NCBI GenBank assembly: GCA_035221665.1
Contig: CM069162.1
Span: 23,560,001 to 23,624,000 of the forward strand
Origin: Okamejei kenojei
Lineage: Eukaryota
DNA length: 64,000 nt
Direction of reading: 5' to 3'
The notes beneath the pieces are model-generated. The model was not told the origin of the DNA. It did not search any database and saw only the letters and a list, made by a program, of their open reading frames with translations. A program made the translations under genes and the position numbers. Shown one piece after another: positions 2,736 through 64,000 of this stretch (within the stretch, counting starts at the first letter, position 1; each line of letters begins with the position of its first letter).

Positions 2736-4283
2736 AGTGAACTGAGCAGCAATCTTCCTCCATATGACAGCCAAGATTAGAAGAACGGAGAAAAGTGACA
2801 CAAACTACCATAACACCTATGAATGAATAATTCAAACTGGTTTTGTGTCTTTTTCCAACTTTGATGTTTCTGAGTGCAACTACTGGTGGGTACACATTTC
2901 ACTACACCAATCGGCGAATGTGACTAATAAAGAACCTTTGATACCTAATAAATTATGAGTGCACTTCAAATGAAATTAAATGCAGAAGATTTACAGGGTA
3001 TGCTACGATGTGAAAGGCAAGCAGAATAAAATCTCACCCAATGCCTGAATAGTGTTGCTCTAATGTCTCCGTGTAAAAAGGAACACACAGCTTTAAAAAT
3101 AAAACCCCCAATGAGTTCAACGTGAGCAAGAGGTATTTTCGTCTGCGTGGGAAAGATTTTCCCAGGCAAGTGAATGCTTCCGACTCAGCACTTCCTCAGT
3201 GAAAGATATAAATCAATCAATTTCTTGCATTTCACTCCCCACCATTGTTCATTTTTCACTCCCCACCACAAGCAGTTAATAGAAATTGTAGCACAAAGCC
3301 CAGGTCTATCTGAAACTTATTCTACAACTACCCAAGTGTATGCAAAAAATTCACTTTCAGTGACCATGGCTAACGACTCCATGTGAAAACTAGAAGTCAT
3401 AGATAAAACTGTCCTCAAGATCAGATGGGAAGATCCATATTGTGGTTCCAGCAGGGTGGGGATTGTGGAGGTGGAGGCAGAAGTAGCAAGATTTTCTTTC
3501 AGTCAGACCACCATCATCAGCTTGATTAGACCCCCATAATACATTCCAAAAGTCAAGAAAACTCTTCCAGTGCTCCAAGATCTATTTATCCACAATTACC
3601 GGAAAAAGATTTACGTTCATATCACATTACTGCAGTTTTTTGGCGGGAGAGTTTCCACATAAATTTGCTTCATGTTACTAAGTACCTGATGTGTGACTAT
3701 CATTGTGAAAGTAATAGGCGTTCTGAAATCCTGGAGTTGTAAAAGGGCATGAAATTAGAACATTTCAATTAACAACTTTTGTCACAACCAACAGAAAATT
3801 GTTACAATGCTTACAGTGGTTGAGAGGGTGGGGTGCTTAAATTCTCAAATTAAACTATTACAGAGCTTTGGAATCTTCCATATTTACATGCTGGAACCCA
3901 ACGTACAAGCAGCTATGCTGTAACATGATAGCATCAGTCTCAAGAAAGCAAAATTATAAAAATTCCAGTCCAGACAATGATAATTGGATAAGACGATAAG
4001 GATTCTGGCAGAAATATACACCAAATAGTCGAGTTGCATCTCAAAATGAGAACTACTAATGGGTCAAAAGACAACTAGCCTCTCTCTCCCTCTCATACTC
4101 ACTTTATGCCACCACAGGCAACCCAAGTATTTGGGAATTCTCAGCCAATAATTCATCAATTTGTAAATTAGGTCAAGTCTGTACTCACTGCAGCACTTTG
4201 CAATATCTTTATAACTGGGGAAGTACAGAGTAGGAAGAAAACCTCAGACAAGCTAGAAACAATTAAAGCTACTGACATACTAA

Positions 4284-4950
4284 AGGCCCTGTCCCACTTA
4301 CGTGTCCTAGGTATGCAAATTACGCAACCTCGTCACGGCATCGCGTGGCCGCGCGTGGCCGGTCGCACTGAGAAGCGCGGAGGGGTATGGAGTTGTGCGC
4401 TGTATCGCGCGGCACTCCGAAATTTTGTAGCGAACGAAATCTACGAGCGCCACCGGCCTGTCGCGTAACTGACGAACAAAGTGGGACAGGCCCAAGACCC
4501 TGGCGCGACGCAACGTCTCACCTCCAACAGCAGCAGAAGCATGCAAACGATCGTCGAGCATGATGTCGCTCACGGCCGTTGCGGTCCGGATCCGCCCCCA
4601 CTTCTACTCCCAGAGCGGGGCCAAGAAAATTGAAGATAGACACAAAATGCTGGAGTAACTCAGCGGGAACGGCAGCAAATCTGGAGAGAAGGAATGGATG
4701 ACGTTTCTGGTCAAGACCTTTCTTTCAGACTGAAGAAGGGTCTCGACCCTGAAACATCACCCATTGCTTCTCTCCAGAGATGCTGCCGGTCCCACTGAGT
4801 TACTCCAGCATCTTGTGTCCATCTTCAAATTACGTCACACACTCCAGACGGCTGTGCAGATGCATGATGTCGCGCGCGACCGTCGCGCCTCAAAGCAACC
4901 ACGAGATCGCGTAATTAGCGTGCCAAGGACACGCAAGTGGGACAGGGGCT
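4284..4950. mobile_element. PIF/Harbinger-type MITE
   Basis: TIRs aggccctgtcccacttacgtgtcc / ggacacgcaagtgggacaggggct; flanks taa/tta; CpG-rich and non-coding; additional internal TIR-like sequence at about 4479-4493. Confidence 0.78.
4630..4828. mobile_element. Palindromic PLE-end element nested in a Harbinger MITE
   Basis: Two ~99-bp inverted arms centred on ttcag-a-ctgaa (centre 4729), each carrying a degenerate hammerhead-like core. Confidence 0.8.
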
Positions 4951-8090: not shown

Positions 8091-9721
8091 TAAAATCATG
8101 GTAAATCACATTAAAAAACATCATCATTTATATATTTTAAAAACCCACAATACTTCAGCTAAAAATCCAGAGTAAAAGATGATCAATGTCGTACAACGAG
8201 ACAACGACACCATTGGAATTGGGATGTAAGACATTGGGATTGTATCGTACCTGTGTTTGTGAACAGTGTTTGTGCTGAGGGGAAAGAGAGAGGGATTTGG
8301 GAATTGCTCTTACTGTCACAAATACAATCTATGAGCACTACAAACATTCAACAGGTGAGGCAGCATCTGTAACAAAAATGTTTAAGAATTAACGTTACAC
8401 GTCAAAGAACCTTCACCAGAACGTGCTGCTTTATTTCAGATCAACACGGCCTGTAGATTTATGATTTTTTTATTCTTTGACAGTCCACATGACTGAGGTG
8501 CGCCGCCTGTCGTGATAGACACTGCCATGATTCTATTCAGTTAACTGGTCAACCCTCTCCTCCCCAATAGGAACAAAACATCTCTACAGGTTTAATCAAC
8601 AGGAAGTTACCACCTAAAATTCAAAAATTTTGATTCCTTCTCATAAAGTGAAAATATCGAAAAAGTTGCTGTGCAGTTGAAAAGAGGCTTAACCCAGACT
8701 GGAATAGTATTGTCCCGTTCCTTGGCACCAGGCAGGAAATTCAACCCCTGACTGGTATACAATTCCTTCACATGATGTCAACAGAAGTGCAACGCTCAGT
8801 ATTTGCCTCAAGCAGGATTTTTAACTTCACTTATCTGAAAAAGGCCTGTCGTTGTTTGCTAACCCTGTTTACACTGAAATAATATATTAAAAGGGCCAAT
8901 ACACAAATGGCTTTCTCTGCCAGGGAAGTACTTTGCAGCCTTACTGCTTACTCTGCAAGCTGCTCTCACTTAAATCAAGGCTTCCCTTCTCCGCACCCTT
9001 TGAGACTTACCTGAACTCACAACTTACTTCCAAAGAGGATCTGTTTACAGGTAACATTTCTTTTGTTGGATAGGATGGAAATTAACTATAAGCATTCAAG
9101 GCATCTCGGGTAGCCACAGGGACCTTGCTGGAGGCGGCATAAAAGGGCTCATCTCCTGAGGTTTTACCAGCCAGAAATTTATAGAGATCAAGGCTTGCAG
9201 CAAAACTTCTGTAATGAGCAGGTAGGTGCTCAGAAATGACAGTCCTAAGTGACATGTTACCTCCTACAAAGCCAAGCAAATACCCACATACATGCCTGGA
9301 ATACTCTGCCACGAAGGGTTCAGGTCATAGTCACTTCCAGCTCCCTTGCGTAAAGATCATTCTGAACTGCTGCTGTTGATGTTAACTCCGTTGCAGAGTT
9401 TGCGGCGCCCAGCTCCACTATGGAAGACAACAAGGTCCATGTAATAGGGAGAATATCACCTAGTGGATGCAAGGATCCGCAGATGCTGGTTTACACACAA
9501 GGACACCTTTGATTAGCCTTGAACAAAAAAAGGTACTGGGGTAACTCAGCAGGTCAGGCAACATTCTTGAAGAACAAGGGTAGGGGATGTTTCAGGTCGG
9601 GATCCCCTTCAGGCAGGACGTTACCTTACCTTTAACTCACTGGAACAGCCAGGCAAGGGATTAGCTGCTAATACAGGATTCCCTGGAGTGGAGGCACTCA
9701 TATAGTATGTCATTAAGGAGA

Positions 9722-10020: not shown

Positions 10021-11377
10021 ATCCCCCCCCCCCTCCCCTTTGAGGGATACAGCATGGAAACAGCCATTCGGCCCGAAGCATCACTAGCAAGTTCCTAATA
10101 GTTTCCCCATGGCTGCCTTGCACAAAGAACATGATTCCTCTGAGTACTGTTCTCCGCCCCACTCTCCAACATCATATCATTTGCAGCACCACTCTCCGTG
10201 GCTGGAATAATGTTGTTTGTAGGGTATATCCACCCCATTACAGAAACATACAATGTCTACGGCAAAGGAAGTTGTCATTTGGTCCATCGTTCGTTCTGCC
10301 TTTGTGTAAGCAATTTAACTAGCCCAACTCCCTAACCACATAGGTACTGTAAATTATTTCCCTTCAGATGTTACATAACCGCCTCTGAATCTCTTTCCCC
10401 TTAGTTAAATCTATATTGTTTTGTTTTATCTGTCGCTGATATGGGGAAAGGTTTCCTGCAGTCTACAATATCTATACCCCTCACGATTTTTATATAGCTC
10501 AGTTCTTAGCCTACTTCTTAGCCTAGAACAGACCCTGCCTCTCAAACACTCCATCACGGGTGAATCTCCGCTGCACCCAATGGTGTATAAAGTTGAGCAT
10601 AACCTCCCTGGTTTTCTATTCATCTCCCTGACTAATAATGGCCATTATCCTGAGTGGTGAAGTTTTACATTCCTGCCCCTCCAGGACTGCCCTGGAAACT
10701 CCAGGAATTAATCTCCAAACACATTGTGGCAAACTGGTGTTGGTATTATAAGATGCAAGTGACTTTCTTTAATGAGTTACAAAAGTATTAGAGACAGATT
10801 AAAAAGCGTAACATCATCCAAACAGGTAATTATGAGTCTGTTTGGTTTCCAATTGGTTAAGGGAAGATGGGCAATATGCGAGATGTGTAATGATGGGTCC
10901 GTGGCTAGGTCATATTCATCGAGTGATACAGTGTGGAAACAGGCCCTTCGGCGCAACTCGCCTACACCGGCCAACAATGTCCCAGCTACCTTAGTCCCAC
11001 TTGCCTGCGCTTGGTCCATAACCCTCCAAACCTGTGCTATCCTTGGGTACACAAAAAGCTGGAGAAACTCAGCGGGTGCAGCAGCATCTAAGGAGCGAAG
11101 GAGATAGGCGACGTTTCGGGTCGAGACCCTTCTTCAGACTGGTCAGGGATCAGGGAAACGAGAGATATAGACGGTGATGTGGAGAGATAAGGAACAATGA
11201 GTGAAAGATATGCAAAAAAGTATCGGTGATAAAGGGAACAAGCCATTGTAAGCTGTTTGTGGTGTGAAAATGAGAAGCTGGTGTGACTGGGGTGGGGGAG
11301 GGAGATAGAGATAGAGGGAATGCCAGGGCCCGAGGGCTGAGGGAGAGGTGGGAAGGGGAGGAGACAGCAAGGGTTAA

Positions 11378-12595
11378 CAGAATTGAGAAAATTCAATATT
11401 CAAGCCCAAAGGATGCAGACTCCCCAAGCGAATATGAGGTGCTGTTCCTCCAGCTTGCGGTGTTGCTCACTCTGGCCGTGGAGGAGGCCCAGGACCGAGA
11501 GGTCGGATGTGGAATGGGAGGGGGAGTTGAAGTGCTGAGCCACCGGGAGGTCGGGTTGGTTATTGCGGACCGAGCGGAGGTGTTCGGCGAAACGATCGCC
11601 AAGCCTCCGCTTGGTCTCACCGATATAGATCATCTGGCATCTGGAGCAGCGGATGCAGTAGATGAGGTTGGAGGAGGTGCAGGTGAACCTCTGTCGGACC
11701 TGGAAGGACTGCTTGGGTCCCTGAAAGGAGTGGAGGGGGGAGGTGAAGGGACAAGTGTTGCATTTCTTGCGGTTGCAAGGGAAAGTGCCCGGGAAGGGGT
11801 AGAGTGGGAGGGGAGGGAAGAATTGACAAGGGAGTTGCGGAGGGAGCGGTCTTTGCGGAAGGCAGACAGGGGGGGAGATGGGAAGATGTGGCGGGTGGAG
11901 GGGTCACGTTGGAGGTGGCGAAACTGGCGGAGGACTATATGTTGTATTTGCCGGCTGGTGGGGTGAAAGGTGAGGACCAGGGGGACTCTGCCCTGTTTGC
12001 GAGGGGGGGAATGGGGAGCGAGGGCAGTGTTGCGGGGTATGGAGGAGACCCTGGTGCGAGCCTCATCAATAGTGGGGAGGGGAATCCCCGTTCTCTGAAG
12101 AATGAGGCCATTTGTGATGACCTGGTGTGGAACACCTCATCCTGGGAGCAGATGCGGCGTAGACGGAGGAATTGGGAATAGGGGATGGAGTCCTTACAGG
12201 AAGCAGGGTGGGAGGAAGAGTAGTCCAGGTAGCTGTGGGAGTCAGTAGGTTTGTAGTGGATGTCGGTCAGGAGTGTATCACCTGCAATAGAGATGGTGAG
12301 GTCAAGGAATGGTAGGGAAGTGTCGGAAATGGTCCAAGTGTATTTGAGTGCCGGATGGAAGTTGGTGGTGAAATGAATGAAGTCAGTCAGTTGTGTGTGG
12401 GTGCAGGAGGTGACACCAAGCAGTCGTCGATGTAACGGAGGTAGAGGTTCGGGGATGGGGCCCTGGTATGCCGAGAACAAGGATTGTTCGACGTACCCAA
12501 CAAAGAGGCAAGCGTAGCTGGGGCCCATGCGTGTGCCCATAGCTACGCCTTGTGTTTGGAGGAAATGGGAGGAATCAAAAGAGAAGTTATTGAAG
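11378..12595 (-). pseudogene. Second (inverted) copy of PLE RT plus GIY-YIG
   Basis: ORFs 11935..12540 and 11400..11633 mirror the plus-strand copy. This arm extends about 50 nt further 5' (LNNFSFDSSHFLQTQGVAMG). Confidence 0.9.
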
Positions 12596-12606
12596 ATTTA
12601 TTTCCT

Positions 12607-13779
12607 TAGCTATGGGCACACGCATGGGCCCCAGCTACGCTTGCCTCTTTGTTGGGTACGTCGAACAATCCTTGTTCTCGGCATACCAGGGCCCCATCCC
12701 CGACCTCTACCTCCGTTACATCGACGACTGCTTTGGTGTCACCTCCTGCACCCACACACAACTGACTGACTTCATTCATTTCACCACCAACTTCCATCCG
12801 GCACTCAAATACACTTGGACCATTTCCGACACTTCCCTACCATTCCTTGACCTCACCATCTCTATTGCAGGTGATACACTCCTGACCGACATCCACTACA
12901 AACCTACTGACTCCCACAGCTACCTGGACTACTCTTCCTCCCACCCTGCTTCCTGTAAGGACTCCATCCCCTATTCCCAATTCCTCCGTCTACGCCGCAT
13001 CTGCTCCCAGGATGAGGTGTTCCACACCAGGTCATCACAAATGGCCTCATTCTTCAGAGAACGGGGATTCCCCTCCCCCACTATTGATGAGGCTCGCACC
13101 AGGTCTCCTCCATACCCCGCAACACTGCCCTCGCTCCCCATTCCCCCCCTCGCAAACAGGGCAGAGTCCCCCTGGTCCTCACCTTTCACCCCACCAGCCG
13201 GCAAATACAACATATAGTCCTCCGCCAGTTTCGCCACCTCCAACGTGACCCCTCCACCCGCCACATCTTCCCATCTCCCCCCCTGTCTGCCTTCCGCAAA
13301 GACCGCTCCCTCCACAACTCCCTTGTCAATTCTTCCCTCCCTCCCACTCTACCCCTTCCCCGGGCACTTTCCCTTGCAACCGCAAGAAATGCAACACTTG
13401 TCCCTTCACCTCCCCCCTCCACTCCTTTCAGGGACCCAAGCAGTCCTTCCAGGTCCGACAGAGGTTCACCTGCACCTCCTCCAACCTCATCTACTGCATC
13501 CGCTGCTCCAGATGCCAGATGATCTATATCGGTGAGACCAAGCGGAGGCTTGGCGATCGTTTCGCCGAACACCTCCGCTCGGTCCGCAATAACCAACCCG
13601 ACCTCCCGGTGGCTCAGCACTTCAACTCCCCCTCCCATTCCACATCCGACCTCTCGGTCCTGGGCCTCCTCCACGGCCAGAGTGAGCAACACCGCAAGCT
13701 GGAGGAACAGCACCTCATATTCCGCTTGGGGAGTCTGCATCCTTTGGGCTTGAATATTGAATTTTCTCAATTCTGTTAA
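12607..13779 (+). pseudogene. PLE reverse transcriptase C-terminal half plus GIY-YIG endonuclease (frameshifted)
   Basis: AMGTRMGPSYA, YLRYIDD, LPFLD, YKPTD and YSQFLRLRRICS RT/thumb motifs; Cys linker CNRKKCNTC; NLIYCIRCSRC-MIYIGETKRRLGDRFAEH...HF...GLN GIY-YIG domain; split across frames. Confidence 0.9.
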
Positions 13780-14013
13780 CCCTTGCTGTCTCCTCCCCTT
13801 CCCACCTCTCCCTCAGCCCTCGGGCCCTGGCATTCCCTCTATCTCTATCTCCCTCCCCCACCCCAGTCACACCAGCTTCTCATTTTCACACCACAAACAG
13901 CTTACAATGGCTTGTTCCCTTTATCACCGATACTTTTTTGCATATCTTTCACTCATTGTTCCTTATCTCTCCACATCACCGTCTATATCTCTCGTTTCCC
14001 TGATCCCTGACCA

Positions 14014-14045
14014 GTCTGAAGAAGGGTCTCGACCCGAAACGTCGC
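14014..14045 (+). ncRNA. Minimal type I hammerhead-ribozyme-like motif in the PLE 3' end
   Basis: CTGAAGA (14016-22), A, GGGT-CTCG-ACCC hairpin, GAAA, CGTC. This gives the core boxes CUGANGA and GAAA, a palindromic ACGT in place of stem III, and a GUC cleavage triplet. Stem I is only about 2 bp. The mirror copy is at 11108-11139 (minus). Confidence 0.65.
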
Positions 14046-16313
14046 CTATCTCCTTCGCTCCTTAGATGCTGCTGCACCCGCTGAGTTTCTCCAGCTTTTT
14101 GTGTACCCTCGATTCTCCAGCATCTGCAGTTCCTTCTTTAAAACTGTGCTATCCTTGTACCTGTTTCTTAAACTATGGGACAGTCCCAGCCTCAACTACC
14201 TCCTCTGGCAGCTTGTTCCATACACCCACCACCCTCTGGGTGAAAAAGTTACCCCTCGGATTGTTATTAAATCTTTTCCCCTTCACCTTGAACCTATGTC
14301 CTCGATTGCCCTACTCTGAATTTGAATGTTGTATTGAAACATCCACCAATATGGCCAGGTAGGTTTGGGAACTCGGTAAGGATCTGCAATATGGAGGGGG
14401 TTCACCTATACCACCGTGTTCAACCTCAGGAAGATTTGGAGAATCATGTCCCCCCATGTCTGAAATGGCCTGACCCACTGGAGGTTAGGCTGCTTTGAGC
14501 CCCCAACCCAGGGAAGATTAACAGACATTCCAGGCTTGCTGTCCCCGATCCAGGGATTTCTGCTGGTAAGTGGATTCATCTGGTTGTCTTGTGACTCAGC
14601 TATGAAGTCTTGCCCTGTGATTAACCTCTTGTCACTCTCTGAGTGCAGAAACTAACAATAGGCTGGTAATGTGCCAGAGAAACACCACACAATATGATTG
14701 AGTTCGAGTGAAAAAGGACCAAAGTGTATTTGGAAAAGGAATTCCAACAATGTAGAGGCGAAACATTGTGAAAGCTGGAATTCTGAAATTAAATTAGAAA
14801 GGGTTTAAAAGTTTCCAATATTTTCTCTCATTTTTCTAAAAATATGTATAATTAAAATGGTAATAGTTGCACGAAGGAGCTCTGACAAGGTCAGAGTTAG
14901 GACATCATGAACCACCATCTCAACTAAATAGCAAAATGAATGTAAAACCCTATTGCAGGAATTCAAAACACGCTGGTTGTGAATGTTGGCTGAAGTGCAA
15001 TGATAAAGAATTGTTCTCTGCAGAGTAAAGCTAAGTACGTTAGAATTACATAGCACCACAGAATGAAACAACACGGGAGGGTGAACCGGCTTAATGCCCC
15101 CATCGCCTTCAAGGTCGGCTGCAGGAAACGCCCACGGGACACAAAGATGGCCGGACGAGGAGAGGGATGCCGGTTTGCGGTAACTACACCTGCGGACCGT
15201 GCAGTGGGCTGACTGGACTTTGAATAACGGCGTCAAAAATGGCGACGTCTGCATGTGTAATATATGCAAAAAGGAATTTCACTCTGCAGTTGCATGTGTG
15301 ACAAATAAAGCACCTTTGAAGCATGTCCGTGTCAGACTTACGTGGTGTTATTTTGTGATCTCCAGGTAACTATTGAATCACTTTTCCCAGTTACTGTTGT
15401 AATGTAGGATCAGGACATGGGATCTATACACAGCAACTGCCCACAGGCAGCATTGTGATGAAACAACAAAGACTAATCATATTGGTTGAACGATAAGCAT
15501 TGGCCTTTTACACTACTAAGGAGTGACATGGGATCAATTACATCCACCAGGTAGGTAGATAGGTAGGGGGTGTTAGATTCCCCGACTGAAAGAACACACC
15601 TCTGATGTGGGCCAAACATAGGCAGCAAAGCCCCACTTCAGTACAACATTGATGCCACGCAGCTGAGAAGTTTCTAAAAGGGTGCACATGAAGATATCAC
15701 AAGAAGATGTTGCCCCCTCTGGTGTGAGGATCCAGCCGCCATTCTCAACCAGGACTCACTGGTGTCTGTGAAAGTCACCGAAGAATGGGTTCTACCCACC
15801 AGTGCAATCGTGCAGAATGAGTGAAACGATTCTGCAGACTGTTGCACCTCATTCACACAGACCGATACAGAAAACAAGTGATATCAGACAAGGACAGTAG
15901 TCAGGTTTCTAATTTACTTTCACCTGTCACACAAATTCAAAATCAAAGTCGATGGTTTTTGAGCTGTGGCAGGCAATTTCAACAAACATTAGTGAGGAAG
16001 TAATGTGTAAAACTGTGTAAAATAGTTAATTGTTAATAATGCTGCAGTGCATCAGTTCAAGAGAGCCATTGAAATAAGGACGAGTGTTATTGTACCTGGG
16101 TCTCTGGAGAATCCGCTCTTCCTGTGTTTACGGCAGCTTTTGTTTCCAAAGTGCTTTTCATTATGTTTCCCTGACAGTAACATCTGTATCCAGGGAGGCA
16201 AACACTAACCAGAGCTCAGAGGTATCCAGGCTGGTTCACCCCGTGTCGTGCTGTTGGAGTGCCATTGTGAAATGCTGCATCGTGGCCCCATCTACAGATG
16301 TTAAAAATACAGC

Positions 16314-18438: not shown

Positions 18439-19797
18439 CATGTTGCATATTTCTGTTTTCACAACTGACATAGGAGGAGGCCGTAGAGCCTATCGAGCCC
18501 TTCCCAGCTTGCTCTAAGTTTCCTATTATCTATTCCCCCTACATTTCCAACACTTACCCACACTCTGAAGGCAATTTAAAACGGCCAATTGACCCCCAAA
18601 GCACACACATCTTTGGGATGTGAGAGGAAATTGATGAAGTCACATGAGAACATGCAAACTCCACACAGGCAACAGTGGAAGTCAGGATTGCACAAGATTG
18701 GTGACGCAGTGAAGCAGCATCTCTGCTCGCTGCTAATACAAGTGTCCATCTGGGCCACTTTAGTTGGACCAACCATGGTGACATGAAGAAGTGTTTTGAC
18801 CAAAACATCACCCATTCCTTCTCTCCCGAGATGCTTCCTGTCCCACTAGTTACTCCAGCAATTTATGTCTGTCATGGTGACATGAATCTGGAGTTAGGCA
18901 GAGACCCTAACAAGACGTTTGTCCAAAGGTCACTCCGGCAACCAGCTGGGTTCGCAACTGGTTACTTCTACTGATGACTTTTATTTCCAAATTTATCTTC
19001 AACCAAATTTAGTTCCCAAACTGGATTTTAGCTAAGGTTTTTTATCCAGGAATTAACCCACAAATACTGAGCTATTTTTTAATAATCTGAATCTCACCTC
19101 AAGAATTCAAAGTCAGTAAATTTTAATAAATACCTGTTTGGGAATTTTTTGTACTGACTGCCTAGCCTCTTTATTTTCCATTCTCTCATGCACCAAAGTA
19201 GATTATCTGTTTCTCAATGCAGTGAACATATTGCTCATAACAATTCCAAAGAGCAAAAATTCTGTAAACACTGTCATGATTTAAAATGCAATTGAACACC
19301 TCAAATGTCTTTGCAAATGGAAATCTATTGATTTCCAACTCACCTCCAGGTTTGTCTTTCACTCGCGTTTTGACATGCAGAGCTCAAGTCTTCATGTTTC
19401 TTCACCTTTTCATCTCGTCCCACGGCATCCGAAACTTGCTTTTGAAGGTATTTGTTAGCATTGAGCATAACTAAACCACCTCACGCGTCCGAAACCGAGA
19501 TTTCCCCTCATTCCGACAGAGTGAATAACCAGAAACAGTTTCAAGTGAGAGGACAATCATGCATCATGATTAATTTTACAATAGATTTAAGATAAAGAGC
19601 AAAAGAAGCAGTGTGTCATGCAATCATTGTTTAACAGAGTAAACTGATCTGGACTGTGCTGCCAGAAAAGTGGAAGGATTTAATAGTAACTTACTTGAAT
19701 AGTTAAATACTTGAATGGAAAGTGAAAACCACTATTATCGAGCAAGAGCTAGAGATTTTAGGTTAGATAATACATAAACAATGGGCCAAAAGATAGT

Positions 19798-19925
19798 TTT
19801 AAAGAAGGAACTGCAGATGCTGGAGAATCGAGGGTACACAAAAAGCTGGAGAAACTCAGCGGGTGCAGCAGCATCTAAGGAGCGAAGGAGATAGGCGACG
19901 TTTCGGGTCGAGACCCTTCTTCAGA
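19798..19925 (-). mobile_element. 128-bp PLE 3'-end insertion with hammerhead-like motif
   Basis: Essentially identical to 14015-14142; flanked by 12-bp TSD ccaaaagatagt (19786-19797 and 19926-19937). Confidence 0.88.
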
Positions 19926-21221
19926 CCAAAAGATAGTCTTTGATTCTAGCGGGGTGATTTTAAATTAGTTCTCAAGGCATGACACTTTACCAGTGGGAAG
20001 TGAACACAGCGCCAATTTTACAGCTGATCTAGACATGCTAATCTATGGAGCAAATCCATCACTGCACCCAGTGTCACCAGCCTCCTGATGGGCAGATTAG
20101 GCCCCGACTTCTCACTGTGTCACTTGACGGGTATGCAATTTGTGCTGATATGGTATATCACAATGCTATGCAATTTAATTATACCGCTCGCAACTTTGAT
20201 GTTCATATGTTTCAGATGTTATCAGATGTGTAACCTAATCGTGGCGCCAATTAATTGGAGGGAGGAGGGCTTTCTGGGCCAGTGCTAACGACATGTTTTC
20301 TGACAATCATGCCAACTGAAGTCCAGACATGGCCACTCCCAACTAGTGGAACAGGCATCAGCTTCTACCAATGCCACACTACCAGCAGGCTATGTGTATC
20401 GTGGTTTGAAGTCCAAAAGCAAATGAACAACCTCAAACGTCTTTGCAACTGGAATGATATCCAACTCACCTTCAAAGGTGTCTTTCTCTCTTGTTTTGAT
20501 AGGTTGAACTCATGGCACTCTCGTTACATTACCTGCACACAGCATCATTGTAAAGGGGATGATAAAGGGATTTGTGAGTACGTATCGCAGAATATTATAG
20601 ATTGCTTCCTGATGTTACTCGCGAATGATTAAAAAACTTGATCTAGATTCCCCCACACGAGGAAATGATATTGCTTGTCATGCGAGTAAATAAATTATTC
20701 AACAGGTAGGACACACTTGCCATCTCCCTCCTTCTCCCGAGGCACTTAATCAGAAACTTCTTCTGACTGCTTTGGATGATTGAAATCCAGTCCAGGCGAA
20801 TAACTGGTATCATGAGAAACATTCTTTGTCATGCCTTATCTTCTGGAGCAGGCCTGGCTTGAAGGCCAGTCAGTGCTCACCATATCAGCTGGCAACACAT
20901 CTCACAGACACAGTACTCTCTCACAAAACAGATTCTCAACGCAAGCTGACATTTTATACATATCATGTGTTATAGTGGCTGTTGGATTAGTAAAATGTTA
21001 ACAAAGGAATCCCAATGACACTACTGGTTCCTGTATAAAACTAACCGCCATGTAGCTCAAGAACTAGATTAGAAGCGACAACATTAGAAATAACACAACA
21101 GAGCTGTGGATAAACTTTTATCTGTCACACGGTTCAAAATTACATTTCCATTTAACATTTGGGCTGCACTCATTTTGTCTTCCTTCAGCCAGCTTCAGTC
21201 GTACCAATGAATGCTTTTGGA

Positions 21222-31357: not shown

Positions 31358-34324
31358 TAATTGTATGTTTTTTATAGCATACTGGAGGCAAAACAAACAG
31401 AGCTGCTTGAAGACTCTGTACCATCCAATCCTGTAATTTGAAAGCTGTTTGCCACTAAGCAGCTGTGGGAAGGCGGACACCACGACAATTTATAGGCCTG
31501 ACGAGCGACGGCTGGAATGGGGTGGAATTTATTTTTCTGCACTGAAACCTTCAAGAATATTTCCATCAGGCCTGGCAACCCTCATTCTTAATGAACTTAG
31601 ACCTATGGCAAAAAAAAAAATCCTGCTCATAAATTGGCAATGTCACGGGCATTGGATCGTGGGTAGTTAGCACTGAATATAATGACTTACTCATGTAGAA
31701 ATATGAATTCTTCTGAAAAACAGAGGGGGCTAAATTGGATGGTCCTCAAAAAACCTGCATGGTGATCTTTTGTAGTCTGCTATTTGTGTTGTCTGATAAT
31801 TATAACAAATTCAGTCTGCAGCCCAGATGGGAGTTATCCTTTCCATTAGCAGGGATCCAATTTTGTGAGTGGCTAGCACCAATTAAGACAAGGCTATGCT
31901 ATTTTAAGTCAACTTGTGCCTGTTGAAGGGGAGGCATTCTGAGGCAGGAGCTGATGTGTATTCTGCATCAGACCTGGGAAACATTTAAGAGTGGCATGGC
32001 AATGAAGGGAGCATACTCTGGGGCTCTCCTGTGTTATAATGAAGGCCCGGGTCCAGGTAATGGAGGGGAGGGAGGTCCTGTTTCTGAAGGGGCTTGCAAT
32101 AAAGGGTGGGTTGAGGGGGTGGGTGCTCCCCTAGCCTCATACAGAAGGCAACAAGTACACATTGCGGTGGGAGTCAACGCCAAGATTCAAGCATTGAGTA
32201 CTTGAATCCTGTCGTAAGAACGTTGATGCTGCTTCACGTCAACAATCAAAGTCTGAATGCATCTTAAAATGCCATCAAAAGCACCAGCAGCAGCACACAG
32301 TTCTCAGTGCACCATATCCGTATCACTCACTCATCAGCAACTTTGCACGATCAAACCTGGAGCCTATTATTCATAATCTGTACCACATTCCCCAACACTT
32401 GGCGCAACTCATCTCATAGCTTGCACACACAGCAGGTTTTTTATTTGTAGCTAGACTATCCAAATAGATCACATTGTGCTGAGGCACATTCCTCTCTATC
32501 ACAGGACAAGGAAGAGTGCACAGTCAGGGCAACAGCTAACCAGCAGGGGTAAAGTGCCATTCCATCATCGTGTTGCCTCACAGAAGCCTGCAGAACATCA
32601 CCAGTGTGAGAGTTACTGAGTCTGGGGGACGATGGGGGATATGGAGAGGGAAGACCGTGGAGGAAGATAGTGACCTCATTCTCAATCTTCCAATTCATAG
32701 CATCCCACAATCAAACATAGTCTTTCTCTCCCTGTCCTTCCCACCCTCTTTCATTTGTAAAGTTGTCCATTCTGACAGCCAAAAGGTGCATGGAGAGTAA
32801 GAATCGAGTGTTGGTCAAGGCACATTTGTGGATAGTTTGGCATTCACAACCAATAGCTCAGTGCGCAGCAATGCAGGGAACTTGGGGATGAATGTGGAAG
32901 CAGAGGGTATGTACGCTGGACACTGGACTTGCAGCAAAGGCCAAGCAGAGGAGAATGAGGTTCTGAAAGAGCTGAGTTGCACATGCCATAGATGAGCATT
33001 TGGATGGGGCTTGTACAGCTGCTGTGGTCAGATGATATGGACAATGAATGCAATGACAGGTTTGTGAGAAACCCATGCGGAATCAGCAATGCGGCAGCAA
33101 CTGGCAGCACCTCAAAGGAACTCTAGCGCAGGCAAATACGAGCGGAGCAACTGAACAAAGGCAATACAGCCAAGTCGTGAGTTAACGTTTGTCAGCAATT
33201 TGTCAGATTTTGATTTCTAAGTTTGGAATTTTTATTTTATAATTACCTTTGTTTAAGAAATGTCGCAAGCAGAGGCTATGAGGGAAGGTATGACATGGGT
33301 TGTTGGTGAATGGAAAATGTAGTTGGCATTTATTGGTGAAGTGGGCCGGTGGCACGTAGGCCAGGCAGAAGTGGGCTTGTGTTCTCGTGTGGACCCATCT
33401 GCTGCCCAATGTACAGCTTCACCACTATTCTGTCAAGGCTCTGGAGCATGCAGGAAATTATCACGAATCTCGAGTCAACAGGGTGCCTTACCACGTCTCT
33501 TGTGACATGGCGTTCATTCAATGTGCATTGCCCTACCTTTGAATGGATTGTGCATTGATATTCCTTGTCATAAAGTAGTTACCCTCTGGTTTGCTATGGA
33601 GACTCCGAAACATGTTATTTCTGGACAGCATCGGAATGAATACCTTTTGACTGGTGCCAGGAGATCAGGCATCAACCTGCATAATGTGCCGTGCTTAGTC
33701 GCAAACTAGCTGCAAACGAGGGACTGGAATCCCTTTGGATTTGTGCCGTTGGCACCTTCAAGTCAACGTGCCCATTGTCAGTGGCACTCTGTGTCATGGG
33801 GAAGCTGCAAATCTCCCAAAGCTGTTAGTTTGCTCTTACTGTTGGCGTCTGCCCAGAGGGAATGAAATGCACTCAACCTTTCTGGATTAGAGTGTATCAG
33901 TGACCTACCTCTCCCTTGTGCAGCAATGGTCAGCAGGCTGAGAGGTGTTGCAAATATTTCTTGCCTTAGCCTTAAAGGAATCGCGCCCCTAAAATGTCAT
34001 AGCCACAATGACTTAGACAGCAACTGGCAATGTGATCCTCAGCATACTTTGCTAGTGGGGTGGTGATATTTATTAGTGAGCTGATCCTTAATGAAGCACC
34101 AGTTTCCTCACACACACTGGCCATCCATGAGATTGAGCAAGCAGAACTGTACTCAGGGTTAATCTTTGCACAAGAGCTCTTATCCCTTCCTTCTCCCCCT
34201 TCTTCTGACAGCTCTTCCACCCCCCTCTTCTGAACCCACTGCCTGTTCTCTGAGTCACGCTGCATTCCAAAATATGTACCAAAACCCTGTTGATTTGCTA
34301 ACAGTCAAGATACAGTTTTTCAGC

Positions 34325-34501
34325 AAAGATGGACACAAAGCGCTGGGGTAACTCAGCGGCTCAGGCAGCATCTCTGAAGAAAAAGGATGGGTGATGTTTC
34401 GGGTCAGGACTTCTGATCCCGACCCGAAACGCCACCCATCCTTTTTCTCCAGCGATGCTGCCTGACTCGCTGAGTTACTCCAGCACTCTGTGTCTATCTT
34501 T
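34325..34501. mobile_element. Palindromic PLE-end element
   Basis: aaagatggacaca...ctgggg taactcagcg / cgctgagttactccagc...tgtgtctatcttt inverted arms; centre partly deleted. Confidence 0.78.
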
Positions 34502-37387
34502 GTTATAAACAAGCTGTTATTTTTACTGTTCTTTGTTTCTGCAGTTTATCACTGTCTGGCAGAAAACCCTTTGTGGACTTCAAGAATTTTAAAGCACCGT
34601 GGAGACCACTAATGCTTGGTGGAACTGTACAAGCCAACAAACAGCATCAGTAACTGATCTCCAACTAGTTGATAACCTCTTTTGGTTGTATGTTCTGCCG
34701 TGCGAGTTAGAATATAGGGTGGCAGGTTGAACACCAAAGTCATCTTGCAGCAATGGTGGCAATTCACGCACTGCATGCTGCACTGATACTTCCAATGGGC
34801 TTTAGCTTCACAGGCAGTAACATCTTTCACAGCATGACACCTAATTTGACCTGCATGACAAATGTGTACCTCCATTATGGAAGCAATTTAACAATCTTGG
34901 GATTCAAGTACCATATAATGCGGTCACAATGCTAGCTCAGAGTAGAGACACCTTTAATCTACAATCAACTGTGCAATAGACAAGTTTTGAATGCGAGACG
35001 TCTAAAGAATCTCAGTCACAACACTGTGGTGAGCGGAAATGCTGTTAAATAGGCATTGCAACAGGTGGCCTAGGGTAGGTCTTGGTTTTAGCATTGGGCT
35101 CTGGAGAGTAACAGATCACTCCATCAACTCGAACAAAACATTTCCCAGAAAAACTCTGAAATAATTAATTTGGCTTGGATTTCTCTGGCAAGTTTCACCA
35201 AACTAATCAACAAACAATTCACAGCAAACATTCCTGATTAGCTTTGCAGCCTAAACATCTGTGATTAATTCAGATCCCAAACCCAGACAAATTTAATGAT
35301 TTTCAAATTAGTTTAGATTAAAATTAAATCAATGTTGCACGTTGGGCTGAGATGTGTACTTCTTGTTAAAGGTTCGGCGACTGGAATAGATGTGTATTTA
35401 TTTATGGATTGGGACCACAGACCCACAAGCCCAGCTACTTCTCACTGGCTTTCCAAATTTCCATTCGTCATGAAAAAGGCATGAGCACGAAGGTTATTCC
35501 ACTGCAGATGGCATCCAAGTCCAGGTTGATCCAACAGTCCAGCATCCATGCACGAGTAATGAGTTGATGGAATGGCTTTTGTTGTCAGAGATCGAATTGT
35601 TGATGGATTTCCCCCAATCCCATCAGCCTTCTAACCCACTGAGAACACTTCAGGGTGACACATTGGGCCTTAGCTTTCCCTGGTGAAAGAGTGGGCGAGC
35701 TGTTTTTTACTCCATTCAATGGGATCAACGATGACCTGCACCTTACTCCAATCACATGGGCTGACTTTTTATTACCTAAAGAACAGAGTCATATATTCCT
35801 TAACATCATCCTTACAAAACTGTCAGTCACAGTTCAATCTCTCCTCTAAGACACATCATCCAATGCATCACCTACAGCATTATATTGGAATGACAATCCT
35901 GATTAGGGTATACAATAGGAGGATCCGAATCACAACCTTACGATACAGATGTCAGATTGCTTTCAGTATCATCTCTACAGGTTAAACAAGATCCAAGGGC
36001 AGGTGGTCAAATACTTCAAACAGTTCAACATGTTTCCAAACACTCTGTGAACAAACTATCTTCTAATTGGAGTGATATAAAATTATTTTATTTGTCAATT
36101 GTGAGATAAATCCTCTGAATTATCTCCTTCACTGCCACAATTATACAGAAGCTCCGCGATTGTCAACAGGGTTTCTACAGGTAGTTTGATTTCCTTATCT
36201 GTTATTTTCGACTGAGAGAGGATTGTTGGGGATTCCCTGTGCCAGATGTCAATAGAAATCCTGGAAAAAGGCACAAGTGCCGATGCCTTGGTGCCATTAC
36301 TCACGGCATTGTGCCGGACCTTCTGAACAAGAGACCGATAATCCCACAGCAAATTTAACGCATATCCTTTTTTAAATTAGCTTTAAATCAAATCCATTGC
36401 AAATTACAGCTTGATTTGTGTCTCATCATCCCTTAAATTCAAATCAACACTCATCAAACCATCTCCAACATTCAGTGCTACTAATCTTAATCTTTCCTCA
36501 GTCTTCCCTCTGCTCTCTCAATCAAAAGGCTTTTATGCCCCTGGACAATCCTTAAATGCTGATTCATCTACTCTTATCTATTCCTGCAAAGTGTGACAGT
36601 GCCCATGGTTTGTTAGCATTGGCTCTTCAGCTCCAGAACTGGTCAGGCAAACATTGGGAAAGGGATATGACTGCTAATTGCAGATAACAATCCAATCTAA
36701 TTTTAGTTGTGCTGATGAAAGGGCGAAAGATGATGCAGACACCACAAGAAGGCTGCGATTTTCCTTTTTGGTTGCTTTTGTACGAATCGGTACGGTGAGG
36801 GATGAGCACTGGCAATTAGGACAAATATGACATTTTTAAACATTCAATGGAGTGAAGAGTATCATTGTGAATCAAGTCAGGCACACAAAAGCATCTGTGT
36901 TGCTGGTGATTTGTTCCATTAACAGCTCTCGCTGCTCTCACTGCAGAACTTACTGTTACTCACTGTCTGCTTAAACGCACAAGGTCTAAAAATAGACAAT
37001 ATTTCATTCAGAAAGATATTAGACAACATTCACATAATACAACTCCCAGCCTCCCCCTCCGACACGCACACCAGATAAAATAAAAATGAATAAGCTTGAT
37101 CATTCGAGTCTTCTTATCATTGTTCCTTCCTGGTTGGATGCTCCCTGTCCTACGTGGCTATTCCTAATACAGGACAATTAAAAGATTCTTCAATAGCAGG
37201 GACGTTGGAGTGGATCCTAATCCTGTCTTTGCCCAATGTTTGTCCATGGCCAGTCTTCATTAATTGCCGGTGGGTGCTCCTCCAGAGGTTATGGCAGTAA
37301 GGCATTGGAAGGGGTCAGTTAAATCAAAGAAAGGATCAATGCTGGACTTGTTGGCAGCAACACAAGGGGCAAATATGTGTTTACTGG

Positions 37388-40600: not shown

Positions 40601-42126
40601 TCTCTGGGTTCATTTTCATCCACTACCACTTTAAAGAAGCTGGCAGCTGGCCCTGTCTATCTACACTCTTGCAGGTTCCAATCGGGGCGCTATCAGTGTT
40701 AAGAGAAACGGCATCAGCAGATGTCAGCTGCAGCTTTAACTTGGCTGCGCGGTTCAGATTTCCATCTTAACCCAGCAGAATCTCAGCCTTGTTTGTGCGC
40801 TCTCGTCCCACATGGGACTCTATTGAAAGCTCAGGGTCCACTAAGTCTGACGTGCAAAGTATCTGTTATCCCTCATGTAAACCCACAATGAATATGCTCC
40901 CAGATTAAATAATCTCTTCCATGAATAGTCAAAACATAATCTATGAGCTTTAGATTGGCACATGGATATGCAGGGAATGGAGGTACATGGATCATGTGCA
41001 GACAGAGGGGATTACTATATCTTGGCATTATGTTTGGCATAGACATTGTGGCCTGTTCCCGTGCTGTGCTTTTCTATGTTCCATGTTTGACTGGGGGACT
41101 AGTTGGCGATCTACCGGCAGTTTTATGCCTCCATCTCCAGTAACTAGATTTCACTGCCATCACTCTACCACCGGCTTCTTCCTCCTTTACTCTCATTCCA
41201 AATTGTATTCTGTCGGCACAAGTGTTGATTTATGGCAGAAGTACTACTCCGCGTTTGCTGATAAGTAACAGTTAAACACTGAAGAGAAGTGGGCTATTCA
41301 GCTATGGAAGCCAGCGCAGCTGAATCCAATTCTATCCTCATCCTCGTACAGTTAGTTAATTTTGCTCACCATTACAAGAGGATGCAACACTGCATGAAGC
41401 ATTGCTATCGCATATTGTAATTGTGCAGGAATTTGGAGGTAATGCGGGGGAGGAAGATTAAAAGTGACTGAACAAAGGCAACAAGTAAATGGGGAATAAA
41501 AGGATCTCAAGAGGTATTGAGCATATATTTAGTATTGACGACAAAAGGATCATTTTTGTCGTTTTACTTTGTAGTAAGATGTTAAAATCTGGGTGGTGTT
41601 TCATAACGATAAGAAAAACCTCACATTTTATCCCCTAAAAACTTCCCGATGTTCATCGTGGGTGAGGTGGAGAACTTTGGGAGAAGGTGGATGGGTGGAT
41701 TGCAGTGGATGCAAGTAATAGAAGCAACTGAAAAAAAAAGTGATGCAAGATGTAAGCAAAGCTGAGAATAAGGAGGTTATTATTAAGGAGGTTTTCTGGT
41801 GAGGAGAAATGAAATGAGCTCTTCCTCCATTAAACAACCTTAGGCGATAAAACATACCTCGCTTTTTGGGAAAACCTGGTTCTTTCTTGCCAAGAAAGAA
41901 TCAATTCAGAATGTCAACACATTGTTTTCCAGTTATAACTGAACAGTGTGTTCTTCTCCTTTGCCGAACCGTTCCTTCGGGAATCAAGATGTGATATTGG
42001 CCACACAAAGCACAGCTGAGCTGGAGGATCACAAATTATGCAGAAGCATATTGCAAATTTATGTTCTGGAGGTAAATGGTTCAACTTGGAGAGTTGCATT
42101 CTAGTTGGAAGATAGTAGAAATGTTA

Positions 42127-42313
42127 CGAGTAAGAAGGAACTGCAGATGCTGGTTTACACTGAAGATAGACACAAAAAGCTGGAGTAACTCAGCGGGACA
42201 GGCAGCATCTCTGTCGAGAAGGAATGGGTGATGTCTCGACACGTCACTTATTCCTTATCTCCAGAGATGCTGCCCGTCTTGCTGAGTTACTCCAGTTTTT
42301 TGTGTCTATCTAC
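42127..42313. mobile_element. Asymmetric palindromic PLE-end element with TSD
   Basis: The left arm includes the aagaaggaactgcagatgctgg tail and the right arm lacks it. TSD tagaaatgtta lies at 42116-42126 and 42314-42324. Confidence 0.82.
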
Positions 42314-42329
42314 TAGAAATGTTATGCTG

Positions 42330-43110: not shown

Positions 43111-45207
43111 GTTCCCTAGATTAGAGAGTTCTGCCCCAAATTATGTCCTGGCCAAATGTTGAAATATAGTTTTCACCTGGCAATCACAGAGCAAGTATTT
43201 ATTGCTGAGGTCTACCTCACTGTGAGTCATTTTGTTGGATAATAGATCATCAGCCGGCCATCAAGAGCTACATCAAAGACTTGATAAATGTGCAGATGGA
43301 ACTAAGTGGTCATCTCCACTGTTCTGTCCAGCCGACAGATTTAATCATCAGATGCAATGGAAGAATTCCAAGGATTAAGGAAGGATCCCTGAGGAATAAT
43401 GCCTCTGGATAAATCATTTTCTGATCCTAACTGAGTTTAAGCTCAGCAGTCTTTTCAATGCAGAATTTTCACTGAATCCCCACTTGGTTATGTGAAAGTA
43501 ATGACTGCTGTCAGATTGAAAGCTGCAGAACATCAGGTAACATTGTAATTCCCTCTCAACCCAAGTTCTTCTCATGAACCATCTACTTCTTAAATGTGTT
43601 ATGTATTGAATCTCTTCGGGGAGGAGATTGGTTAGTATAATCGATTCCAAAGGGTACACAGCAATTAATTTTGTTCCAATTATTTTACCCTTTCCCATAT
43701 CCCTTTAATTTTTTAACCCTTTCCAGTATTTGAATAGTTCTGATTTGACCAACCATCTCAAAGCAAAGATTCACAGATTCACCGTTGGCACTTAACCCAT
43801 TAAATGAGCTGTCCATGGGACCTGACATACCTTGAACTGGTTTCTGGGACTGAGGTTGTGGTAGCACCAGGGCATTGACTGCTCAACCTGATGGACAACC
43901 CTCTACCAGGTTGGCCATCCTTATTGGCTCAATTGGTTCATGTGATAGGAGCAGAATGAGGCCATTCGGCCCATCAAGCCATCCAATTATGGCTGATACA
44001 TCTTTCCTCCTCAACCCCATTCTCCTGCCTTCTCCCCATAACCCCTGACACCCGTATTAATCAAGAGTCTATCAATCTCTGCCTTAAAAACATCCATTGA
44101 CGTGGCCTCCACAGCCTTCTGTGGCAATTAATTCCATAGATTCACCACCTTCTGTCTTAAAGAAATTCCTCATCTCCTTCCTAAAGATTGTTCATTGTAC
44201 AGGAGGCAGAGTGTTAATTGAGGTGGGGCCACAGCGTGGTCACCCCCAGTAATCTGCTGACTTTTCTCCAGTCCTTTTCTCTGAATTTGTCGGGCATGGT
44301 ATCTGCTTTTGGCTAAGAAGTAAATAACAAGAATCGGAAGTGGTTCACAGCGGTTAGTTGAAACTGGGGTCACCAGTACTTGGAAGAGTGGGCTCTGGAT
44401 GTTCAATGATAACTATTGATGCTTTCCTAGTGCGAGAGTAGCAGATTATTATGAAGTTCACAAATTCACATTCTATGTCATAGCATTCTTCCTGGCTTCC
44501 CATGGTACAAACATGGTGGTCTGTAGCCAAAGTTTAAATGTTTTCACGCAACTATTATTGAAATCTGTGGTTCATCAAGAAGGATTTGACTAGTGCTGAA
44601 AATTAAGGTTTGCGAGACTGAACTTAAGAGCTTTTTTTATGTCTGGTAAGAGAATCAGGGATACACAGAAAAGGAGGGTTATGGAATGGACAAGGCATGC
44701 TGCAACAGAGTGGTGGAACAGGCTCGAGGGAGGAATGACTTCCTCTTGTTCCCAGATCAGTGAGGGAAGCTTATCTTCAGCAAGCTGGTGTCTTCCTCTC
44801 CCACTGCTGGGTCTTCTGGGTTGAGGGGTGATTAAGTTTTCTTCAAAGCTTGCAGTTTCAAAATTCACTTGATGCACTAACAGCCAAGTCTTCTGAGTAG
44901 GCCAGGAATCTGTGTTTAAAGCTAAAATATCCTGAAGCTGTTTTTAATACGGTCCTCAATGACTGATTTAGAAAAGAAAGCTCCCTTTTTGATCTTACAT
45001 TGCGTGACGTGAACACATAAGACACAGTCCTTGTGGGGGGAGGGCGAGAAGGAAGGAGAGCTTAAGGTGGCCTTTAATACAAGGAAACATTGCCCTTTAA
45101 GAGCAACATATCTTTCGCTGTTCTGCAGCTACAAGTTATAACTTAGTCGTGTCAGGCAGGAAACCATTAAGCAAGGAATGATGGAGACGAAGGAATTGAA
45201 AAAGGAT

Positions 45208-45397
45208 CTTGAAATGTCACCTAACCCGAAATGTCACCTATTCCTTTTCTACAGAGATGGTCTGAAGAAGGGTCTCGACCCGAAACGTCACCTCTTTCCT
45301 TTGCTCCATAGATGCTGCCTCACCCGCTGAGTTTCTCCAGCATTTTTGTCTACCTTTGGTGTCTGACCTGCTGAGTTACTCCAGCTTTTTGTGTCTA
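45208..45397 (+). mobile_element. Two nested PLE-end elements
   Basis: A copy starting gtctgaagaagggtctcgacccgaaacgtc (about 45260-45356) interrupts an older same-orientation copy. Confidence 0.7.
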
Positions 45398-45999
45398 AGC
45401 AAGGAATTACCCTCGACATACAACGAGAGTTTGTAATTAGTGAAGAATAATTGGTCTATTGCGATAAAGTATAATGTGCAAAGTTGCTGATTAAAACTGA
45501 AGGGATGAAATTGATTTTTGACAAGAGCACAAACATGAGTCAGCAAAGAACAATGAAGCAAAACCTTTTCTTAAATCACTATCATCCACTTGTTTCATCC
45601 ACATGATATCATGAGCCAGATGAAATTTATAAAGTCATACTGGGGACGGCAGACAGGATTAATCTGGTTGAATTTAAGTGACTAAAAAGACAGCTGCTTC
45701 ATCCAACACTGGCCTCGAGCAACTGATGAAGTTAGTTTGTTGCAAATTAAATCAGCTGGCTAGACAATAATAATATTTTTGAGCGGTGGAGTCTTTAAGG
45801 CTTGAAATCACTCCTTGGGATATTAGCTTATGCAACACATTTGAACTGAATGTATTTGCCCGTTAGTTTATCACAGCTATTTAATCAAAGTTAATTGTTG
45901 TGATGAAACAGTGCATCGAGTCCATCGGCTTTTTACGAGCTCATTGGTGGAATTAAACTTTTCTTATTGCCCACTCCCTTACTAAAGCCCTGAGTCTTA

Positions 46000-56254: not shown

Positions 56255-56345
56255 GATAGACACAAAATTCTGCGGTAACTCAGCAGGACAGGCAGCCTCT
56301 CTGGAGAGGAGGAATGGGTGACGTTTCGAGTCGAGACCCTTCCGC
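56255..56345 (-). mobile_element. PLE-end short element
   Basis: gatagacacaaaa...taactcagcaggacaggcagc...gacgtttcgagtcgagacccttc. Further diverged copies lie at about 6036-6148, 9467-9612, 18800-18870 and 63900-64000. Confidence 0.75.
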
Positions 56346-62735: not shown

Positions 62736-64000
62736 CTTGCAAAGTGAATATAATAGACATTAGTACCGGAGAAAAGAAAGCCTCTGCTTCACAGTGCAGA
62801 ACCTGCCCAGTCAGCACTGGGACACAACAATGACTTATACTCTAACAGTGCCTTTAACATTGAGGAACGTCACCAAATACATGGATGGGCAAGAGGATTT
62901 CAATGGGAATAGGGGAGGAAGCAGCAGTCAGCTGCGGAGGACAACCTTTACCCAGAAAAATGGTAGATGTTGAGTCCTATGGGGGAAGGAAACCTGCTGT
63001 CCATAGCAGGTTAGCTCTATCTGTGATTCCACAACCAAAGGAAATTGGTTGAATTTCTGAGATGGTCTCATAAGTCACTCAGTTCAAGTGGAAATCAGAA
63101 ATAGCTACAACAAAAATACCCCATGAATGATGTTAGAGGACAGGAAGGCATTGGACAAAGACCGCAGGTTGCGTTTGGGAGCTCCTGGTCTGTGTGGGCA
63201 TGGATTTAAACATTTGGCTGATGCTTGAAACACACATTTGTTTGGCAATACTCTTGAGCCCCTATCGGTTCACTCCTGGTTTTCCATTATTTAGGAGAAG
63301 TGCGGTCGAGAACTGACTAATCCAATATGATTCTCTACACCATACTTCTATTTCCAAGGACTGCATTTACCATTGGCACCATCTGGATCTGGCTTTTGGG
63401 CAGATTGGACATTTACACCTGGGGCCATAATGTAGGGAGGTCCCTGGATTAACAGAAGTTTGCTCGGAGATAGTCTCAGGACTGGTGGACAATGCCATGT
63501 GTGCTTAACATAGTGAGAATGCAGACAGAAATGCGATTGTACAATAGTGTATGGAGATGGTGAAATATGAACTCAAGTAATCTGAAATAAAACGTGTGAG
63601 ATCAGTAAATTTGTCACAGAATAGTTTGGAGATCAAGGATACGGACTACACAGCCGTGCGATTGACGGGGCTTTGCATAAGATATTGACAAACGGCAGCA
63701 GGAGATGAGAGATATTAAGAGCTAATCCATCTTAATTCCCACAGGCTGTTCCTCCTGTCGTTCTCTTGCCATCTGCTTGGCTAATTTGTGAAGCTACTGG
63801 AAGAGGGCCAAGCTCAGTGCTCTTTTTCAGTCATTATTTCTGTGTGTGCTTTCTGCTCATGGTGGCATTTGTGAATGGAATACTTCCATCACCAATCCCG
63901 CACAAAATGCCGGAGTGACTCAGCAGGACAGGCAGCATCTCTGGTGAGGAGGAATGGGTGACGTTTTGTGTCTTCAGTCTGAGGAACGTGACCCATTCCT

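Follow-up and report, generated by a model that had tools for sequence, protein, structure and literature searches.

A short palindromic insertion in Okamejei kenojei, probably retrotransposed as two head-to-head ends of a Penelope-like element

In the window (the whole 64,000-nucleotide stretch that was analysed, positions 23,560,001 to 23,624,000 of contig CM069162.1 in the Okamejei kenojei assembly GCA_035221665.1), we identified a 187-bp hairpin, hereafter the mini-element, that very probably goes back to a single, old retrotransposition of a Neptune-type Penelope-like element (PLE), which left two head-to-head hammerhead-bearing ends. On the evidence of its sequence, the mini-element is a head-to-head pair of the hammerhead-bearing ends (pLTRs) of such an element, and it is not a DNA-transposon MITE. 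The insertion at this locus is old and decayed, has no coding capacity and shows no sign of function. The asymmetry of ~35 nt between the two arms is the published PLE 'tail' and is not new.

Results

Structure of the insertion

The first-pass annotation of this DNA had reported an 11-bp target site duplication (TSD) around two inverted PLE-end arms, and both observations are borne out. The direct repeat of 42116-42126 and 42314-42324 is an exact 11-mer, which is expected by chance with a probability of ~1.6 × 10−4 (17 × 17 end pairings), and none of the 500 random controls contained an exact repeat of 9 bp or more (the longest was 8 bp, in 4 of 500). A tolerance of 2 mismatches lengthens this repeat to 16 bp (42113-28 and 42311-26), so that the TSD may be 11-16 bp long, with boundaries accurate to ±2-3 nt and an asymmetry of 35 ± 3 nt. 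Between the duplications (42127-42313), positions 42164-42237 pair with 42238-42311, with 63 of 74 positions identical, no gaps and no spacer, and the predicted RNA fold of the mini-element has z = −16.7, with 0 of 200 shuffled sequences folding equally well. With 111 nt, the long arm exceeds the short one (74-76 nt) by ~35, and 37 nt at the left end have no pairing partner. The features of the mini-element and of its relatives in the window are collected in Table 1.

Table 1. Positions of the mini-element and related insertions in the window
Positions	Strand	Feature	TSD or remark
42116..42126	.	Left TSD of mini-element	11 bp exact, up to 16 bp with 2 mismatches
42127..42163	-	PLE 'tail', ~35-37 nt, long arm only	matches tails at 2610, 14108-14143 and 19797-19832
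42164..42237	-	Long-arm core, pLTR end	5' end = GAAAC box of hammerhead motif
42238..42313	+	Inverted second pLTR stub (short arm), tail-less short-site end	final 2 nt unassigned
42314..42324	.	Right TSD of mini-element	exact copy of left
11046..14143	.	Young 3.1-kb inverted dimer, PLE of Neptune type by its linker	14 bp exact, 11032-45 / 14144-57
4631..4827	.	Palindrome (4627), short/short, centre at CTGA box	terminal 5-bp repeat not above chance
34308..34545	.	Old palindrome (34300), centre in hammerhead stem II	TSD not found
63901..64000	.	Palindrome truncated by window end; CTGA-box centre, short-type left arm	
2610..2737	-	Solo pLTR stub with tail	9 bp exact
9471..9612	-	Old solo pLTR stub, tail plus ~20-nt insertion	TSD not found
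18784..18873	+	Solo pLTR stub without tail	14 bp exact
19797..19926	-	Young tailed solo pLTR stub, identical to end of 3.1-kb element	12 bp exact
45198..45400	+	Partial tandem of pLTR stubs (45200-45397), short-site end	8 bp exact (4/500 controls reach 8)
56255..56343	-	Solo pLTR stub without tail (56251)	15 bp, 2 mismatches (control maximum 12)

Both arms of the mini-element align, at ~77% identity, to the last ~105 nt (14035-14138) of the 3.1-kb inverted dimer, which contains, in this order, a 5'-truncated reverse transcriptase (RT), a CX4CxxC linker, a GIY-YIG domain, a hammerhead motif (~14016-14043) and a tail that ends at 14143. The RT fragment carries a YIDD motif; it had no relevant Pfam match and no match in a PDB sequence search, and its only look-alikes were Atlas entries (scores of 0.96-0.97), with RVT_1 in 17% of the members of one set. 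The GIY-YIG match (E = 2.5 × 10−4) lies just under the Pfam curated cut-off, and the C-x4-C-xx-C linker sits in the ORF 13249-13779. A CX2-5CxxC linker ahead of GIY-YIG marks the Neptune/Nematis group (PMC8557442), and by the sequence of this linker the 3.1-kb parent element is probably of Neptune type. Its two arms differ in 8 of 1,505 columns, 7 of which are single-base indels, and its junction (12546-12606) comprises 61 unpaired nt, ~10 nt of them possibly non-templated filler; a self-complementary hexamer marks the start of the right arm. The short arm of the mini-element had been said to stop at nearly the same place as that of the 3.1-kb element, and this is correct: the offset is ~35 nt in the former and 35-36 nt in the latter (short arm ending at 11045/6, long arm at 14143), in the same register, with the short arm of the mini-element running 3-5 nt past the motif quoted at the time. 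Identity over the shared core is 76-78%, which places the two elements in separate subfamilies, that of the mini-element being the older; no coding copy of this older subfamily was found within the window, and the family link runs via the sister subfamily.

The hammerhead core boxes of the parent, which we called by eye and with the description in PMC4209133, lie at ~14016-14043, upstream of the segment shared with the mini-element. The GAAAC box has its first base at the centre of the mini-element, which leaves half a hammerhead core on each arm, and since only the 3' core box is left per arm and both copies of it are mutated, the mini-element cannot be a ribozyme. There were no Rfam matches in the window, and neither one arm alone nor the monomeric hammerhead gave a significant fold (z from 0.48 to −1.33).

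Two further features of these ends were observed. An 8-bp stem joins the pLTR core (position 28-29) to the tail (83-86), spanning 42127-42237 (minus strand) in the mini-element and 14036-14143 (plus strand) in the parent; it is unchanged in both subfamilies (exact in 3 of the 4 tailed arms checked), and its loop contains the short end; the corresponding fold z-scores were not significant. A pyrimidine-rich run followed by a branch-point-like word and an AG lies in the parent just upstream of the first hammerhead box (13990-14016); it resembles a 3' splice site, and the young solo copy 19797-19926 begins at this point. In Drosophila virilis, the PLE intron has been noted to terminate at the 5' boundary of helix I (PMC4209133).

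Related insertions in the window

The window set comprised 10 complete insertions and 1 cut by the window end, with 16 arms. Of the complete insertions, 6 have exact TSDs (8, 9, 11, 12, 14 and 14 bp), every one with a different sequence, and in 7 of the 10 the TSD is at or above the control maximum (the seventh being 15 bp with 2 mismatches); the other 3 of the 10 have no TSD above chance. The first-pass annotation had set variable TSDs of about 9-14 bp, as left by retrotransposition, against the fixed TSDs of DNA transposons, and the exact lengths of 8-14 bp in these 6 insertions agree with the former.

Arm ends (n = 16) fall at register 67-77 in 8 arms and at register 99-111 in 6, with 2 intermediate. 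Under a uniform null, the probability that 8 of the 10 non-long ends lie inside any 11-nt window is ~0.001, a value that depends on a chosen range of 40-98 and on positions entered by hand, and that treats the non-independent arms of one insertion as separate. Registers of family-A arms were read in their own register and one arm of palindrome 34300 (34300R) by eye, whereas the end of insertion 18784 was fixed from its TSD, the local alignment having run into the flank. In palindrome 34300, one arm reaches partway into the tail and the tail of the other is interrupted. The 4 complete palindromes comprise 2 of long/short type (the mini-element and the 3.1-kb element), 1 of short/short type (4627) and 1 ambiguous case (34300). 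A tabulation of arm end-points had been proposed in the first-pass annotation, and within the window its outcome is mixed: the two clusters are there, with 14 of 16 arms of short or long type, but the long/short pairing is clean in only 2 of the 4 palindromes. The accompanying claim, that a second arm is primed about 35 nt inside the RNA 3' end, likewise holds in part. The offset is reproducible, but the short end also closes three TSD-flanked insertions that are not palindromes (18784, 45200-45397 and 56251), which indicates an alternative start rather than a property of the second arm. Measuring this start from the RNA 3' end does not fit the in vitro results for the single PLE so tested, Poseidon from Anolis carolinensis (PAc), in which two internal RT starts bracket the tail (PMC11167929).

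The small palindromes (n = 4) have 3 distinct centres, none of which lies outside the ~28-nt hammerhead core, and by alignment 5 of 5 single-arm copies start no more than ~6 nt from the CTGAAGA box. Arm-versus-arm identity was tried as a discriminator between independent origins and a clade and gave no separation: the left and right arms of the mini-element are 85% identical, and its left arm is 88% identical to the right arm of 4627. An arm is thus not clearly nearer to its partner in the palindrome than to copies elsewhere, which makes arm phylogeny uninformative at such an age.

Related contigs from four species

Contigs of 4 runs, from 4 species, were placed on 42061-42390 at 80% likeness, which yielded ~200,000-220,000 contigs per run, a count that misses some events and is not a copy number. 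On the outer side, the best-supported loose ends were at 42130/42134 and at 42162/42163 in all 4 runs. The 42162/3 peak is partly confounded by a difference between the mini-element and its family at 42158-62 and by the tail-like appearance of the final ~9 letters in the loose consensus (with an agreement of only 0.34-0.38). Towards the centre, contigs depart behind 42231 (699-905 per run), most of them running on into the parent hammerhead, and a second exit at 42213 coincides with another divergence point of the mini-element. Summed depth at 42236 was 0.03-0.05% of that at 42193 in all 4 runs, in part an effect of the divergence of this particular copy. The centre of the mini-element was bridged by 5 of the 32 pieces listed, from 3 of the 4 runs and 1 of them gap-free, in contigs that break inside repeats, which affects such bridging; this centre or a nearby one thus recurs at other loci, and the copies that share it may form a small clade or mark a hot spot for junctions.

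A piece from run X9 spans 42286-42390 with 4 differences, and a contig from run X19 apparently extends from the left flank to ~42149; these pieces, which fall below the 31-letter bridging rule, suggest that the insertion is common to other species. No empty-site joint was present among the best 15 of 559 joints. The 12 opposite-strand joints listed connect the long end (42130-35) with 42162-79, tail to tail and at least 32 apart, and may reflect clustered insertions or a filter in the joint listing. Motif scans of metagenome, viral and genome contig collections gave no match.

Genomic surroundings

The scan for host genes covered 78 of the 94 ORFs of at least 85 aa outside the 3.1-kb element. 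Two IQ-motif exons lie on the minus strand (60805-60990 and ~59850-59930; Pfam IQ, E = 3.8 × 10−6), which we take to be CAMTA1-like; their match to the Atlas CAMTA1a cluster scored only 0.81. The mini-element lies ~17.5 kb downstream of these exons. A decayed, internally deleted LINE fragment with an RT FADD motif (42325-43111), presumably CR1-like, starts right at the right TSD of the mini-element. An ORF at 17489-17851 matches Pfam ALKBH8_N (E = 8.8 × 10−15), a domain that we assume to come from the C-terminus of ORF2 of L2-type LINEs, and is probably a LINE fragment. A SINE-like family of ~300 bp is represented at 16810-17081, 21228-21518, 37397-37694, 57528-57770, 9867-10025 and 18248-18439, and the 3' ends of SINE-like copies (families D5, D6, D8, D14, D16, D17 and D19) match the ends of LINEs in the window. 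A Tc1/Sleeping Beauty-like DNA transposon occupies 29746-31358; it is flanked by TA, its terminal inverted repeats are long (96%), and its transposase frame comprises 299 aa.

Discussion

The variable TSDs of 8-15 bp and the PLE-derived ends support the first-pass proposal that MITE-like palindromes of this kind arise by retrotransposition. In the sequence of events that we propose, a GIY-YIG endonuclease, an enzyme attributed here from the family, would make nicks staggered by ~8-15 bp that give rise to the observed TSD, and the RT would then start at either of two sites ~35 nt apart, producing either tailed long ends or short ends. The bimodal ends are observed in the window, and a start at two sites has been seen in vitro for the anole Poseidon only (PMC11167929), so that its extension to the present family is by analogy. 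The copy would run for 75-130 nt and halt in the hammerhead region, where the clustering is observed, perhaps at the 5' end of the transcript or at a structure-induced stop. Finally, each nicked strand would prime its own cDNA, and the two cDNAs would meet in head-to-head orientation, joined at a short self-complementary word, in which case each palindrome would mostly be made anew at insertion. Whether this last step is preferred over a fold-back of a single strand is, in our judgement, close to an even call. The clean long/short pairing in just 2 of the 4 complete palindromes, and a short/short palindrome (4627) without a significant TSD, count against the scheme as a whole, as do the 3 insertions of 10 that lack a credible TSD and the recurrence of this or a nearby centre at other loci.

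The fold-back (snap-back) alternative holds that a cDNA or antisense RNA folds at a short palindrome and primes a mirror copy of itself, and that the endonuclease resolves the resulting hairpin ~35 nt inside, so that only one arm keeps the tail; the order of events in the first-pass annotation comes close to this. Both of its components have been published, in that Arkhipova 2013 read junction palindromes as self-priming in the Discussion (PMC3846280) and Craig 2021 ascribed the tail to EN-mediated resolution (PMC8557442). The zero-spacer self-complementary centres of the mini-element and of 4627 speak for it, as does the clean long/short pairing of two palindromes. It is at odds with the TSD-flanked solo copies that stop at the short site and with the short/short palindrome; the 3.1-kb junction, with its unpaired stretch and possible filler, does not look like a clean fold-back; and in vitro both strands were extended and both starts used (PMC11167929). 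We consider this course of events less likely than not, but a serious alternative for the last step.

It is improbable that the mini-element is the remnant of a long dimer like the 3.1-kb element that lost its centre to a later deletion caused by instability of the hairpin or cruciform. The two elements share their outer ends and type of TSD, and long near-perfect palindromes are generally known to be unstable, but all 5 of the 5 solo copies start in the same hammerhead region, one of them young and identical to the 3.1-kb end, which implies that the short length was already there at insertion. Less probable still is a palindrome that propagates itself, as a transposase-moved MITE or as a non-autonomous element copied whole by PLE protein, for which the hairpin form, the similar centre in the 5 bridging pieces and the symmetric ends of 4627 could be cited, but to which are opposed the lack of inverted repeats at the true ends (37 nt being unpaired on the left), TSDs that vary in length and sequence unlike those of the TA-flanked Tc1-like transposon, centres that vary among the window copies, and the very low depth at 42236, itself partly a divergence effect.

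Joined PLE ends, as we propose them here, resemble several known systems. EN+ PLE insertions have head-to-head inverted pLTRs with a 30-40-bp tail at one end, TSDs of ~8-10 bp, a palindromic inverted junction and partial tandems (PMC3846280, PMC8557442); the published tail is optional, and one report gives an inverted pLTR with a 31-bp tail and a 9-10-bp TSD (PMC3846280). The present insertions show a tail of 35 ± 3 nt, a head-to-head inverted 5'-truncated copy and a variable TSD of ~8-15 bp. Unlike those insertions, the mini-element consists of two pLTR stubs alone, with neither an ORF nor captured sequence, and its family is extremely abundant (~200,000 contigs per run, which is not a copy number). 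In PAc (Frangieh et al. 2024, PMC11167929), the tail lies between two RT start sites and the hammerhead upstream of them; both strands are cut and extended in vitro, and the template is uncleaved RNA, just as the arms of the mini-element keep the GAAAC-GTC box. The clades differ, the linker here being Neptune-type, and the biochemistry is that of PAc, whereas the mini-element is known from sequence; the main text on PAc does not treat head-to-head junctions, and it describes the later insertion steps of PLEs as unvalidated.

Like the minimal type I hammerheads described for metazoan PLEs (Cervera and de la Pena 2014, PMC4209133), the parent pLTR has the CTGAAGA / stem II / GAAAC core and a palindromic stem III position, whereas the arms of the mini-element retain only the mutated 3' core box. 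Non-LTR retrozymes (bioRxiv 10.64898/2026.07.22.740005) are also short non-autonomous sequences derived from PLE termini, but they form head-to-tail tandem arrays with intact hammerheads, in contrast to the single head-to-head dimer with TSD found here; both 'palindrom' and 'tail' are absent from the available text of that preprint. With class II MITEs, the mini-element has in common a length of ~200 bp, the lack of coding capacity, a long inverted repeat and direct-repeat flanks; it differs from them in its retroelement-end sequence, in true termini that are not inverted repeats, and in a long, variable TSD (8, 9, 11, 12, 14, 14 and ~15 bp across related insertions, where MITEs have a fixed, superfamily-typical length), a contrast that is also evident from the TA flanks and terminal repeats of the Tc1-like transposon in the same window. 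In the largely open-access papers searched, we found neither pLTR-only palindromes in cartilaginous fish nor twin priming by PLEs.

The earlier suggestion that such elements could be misfiled as DNA transposons is a sound one, as their MITE-like look invites it: repeat libraries could class these hairpins as MITEs, and it is the TSDs and ends that mark them as PLE products. What remains of value is a data set on how PLEs build head-to-head inverted copies. With many short solo and palindromic stubs available, counting long/long, long/short and short/short pairs together with their centres separates twin priming from snap-back. We tentatively suggest that the usual PLE product in this lineage may be a stub of fixed size, from the hammerhead to one of two starts, rather than a random truncation, and that the mini-elements might arise by twin priming, with a dimeric RT-endonuclease, both nicks and two RNAs (possibly a hammerhead dimer), the cDNAs being joined at self-complementary ribozyme words. 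If this is true, these insertions would constitute a high-copy class of retrotransposition-made MITE mimics and a natural read-out of second-strand synthesis in PLEs.
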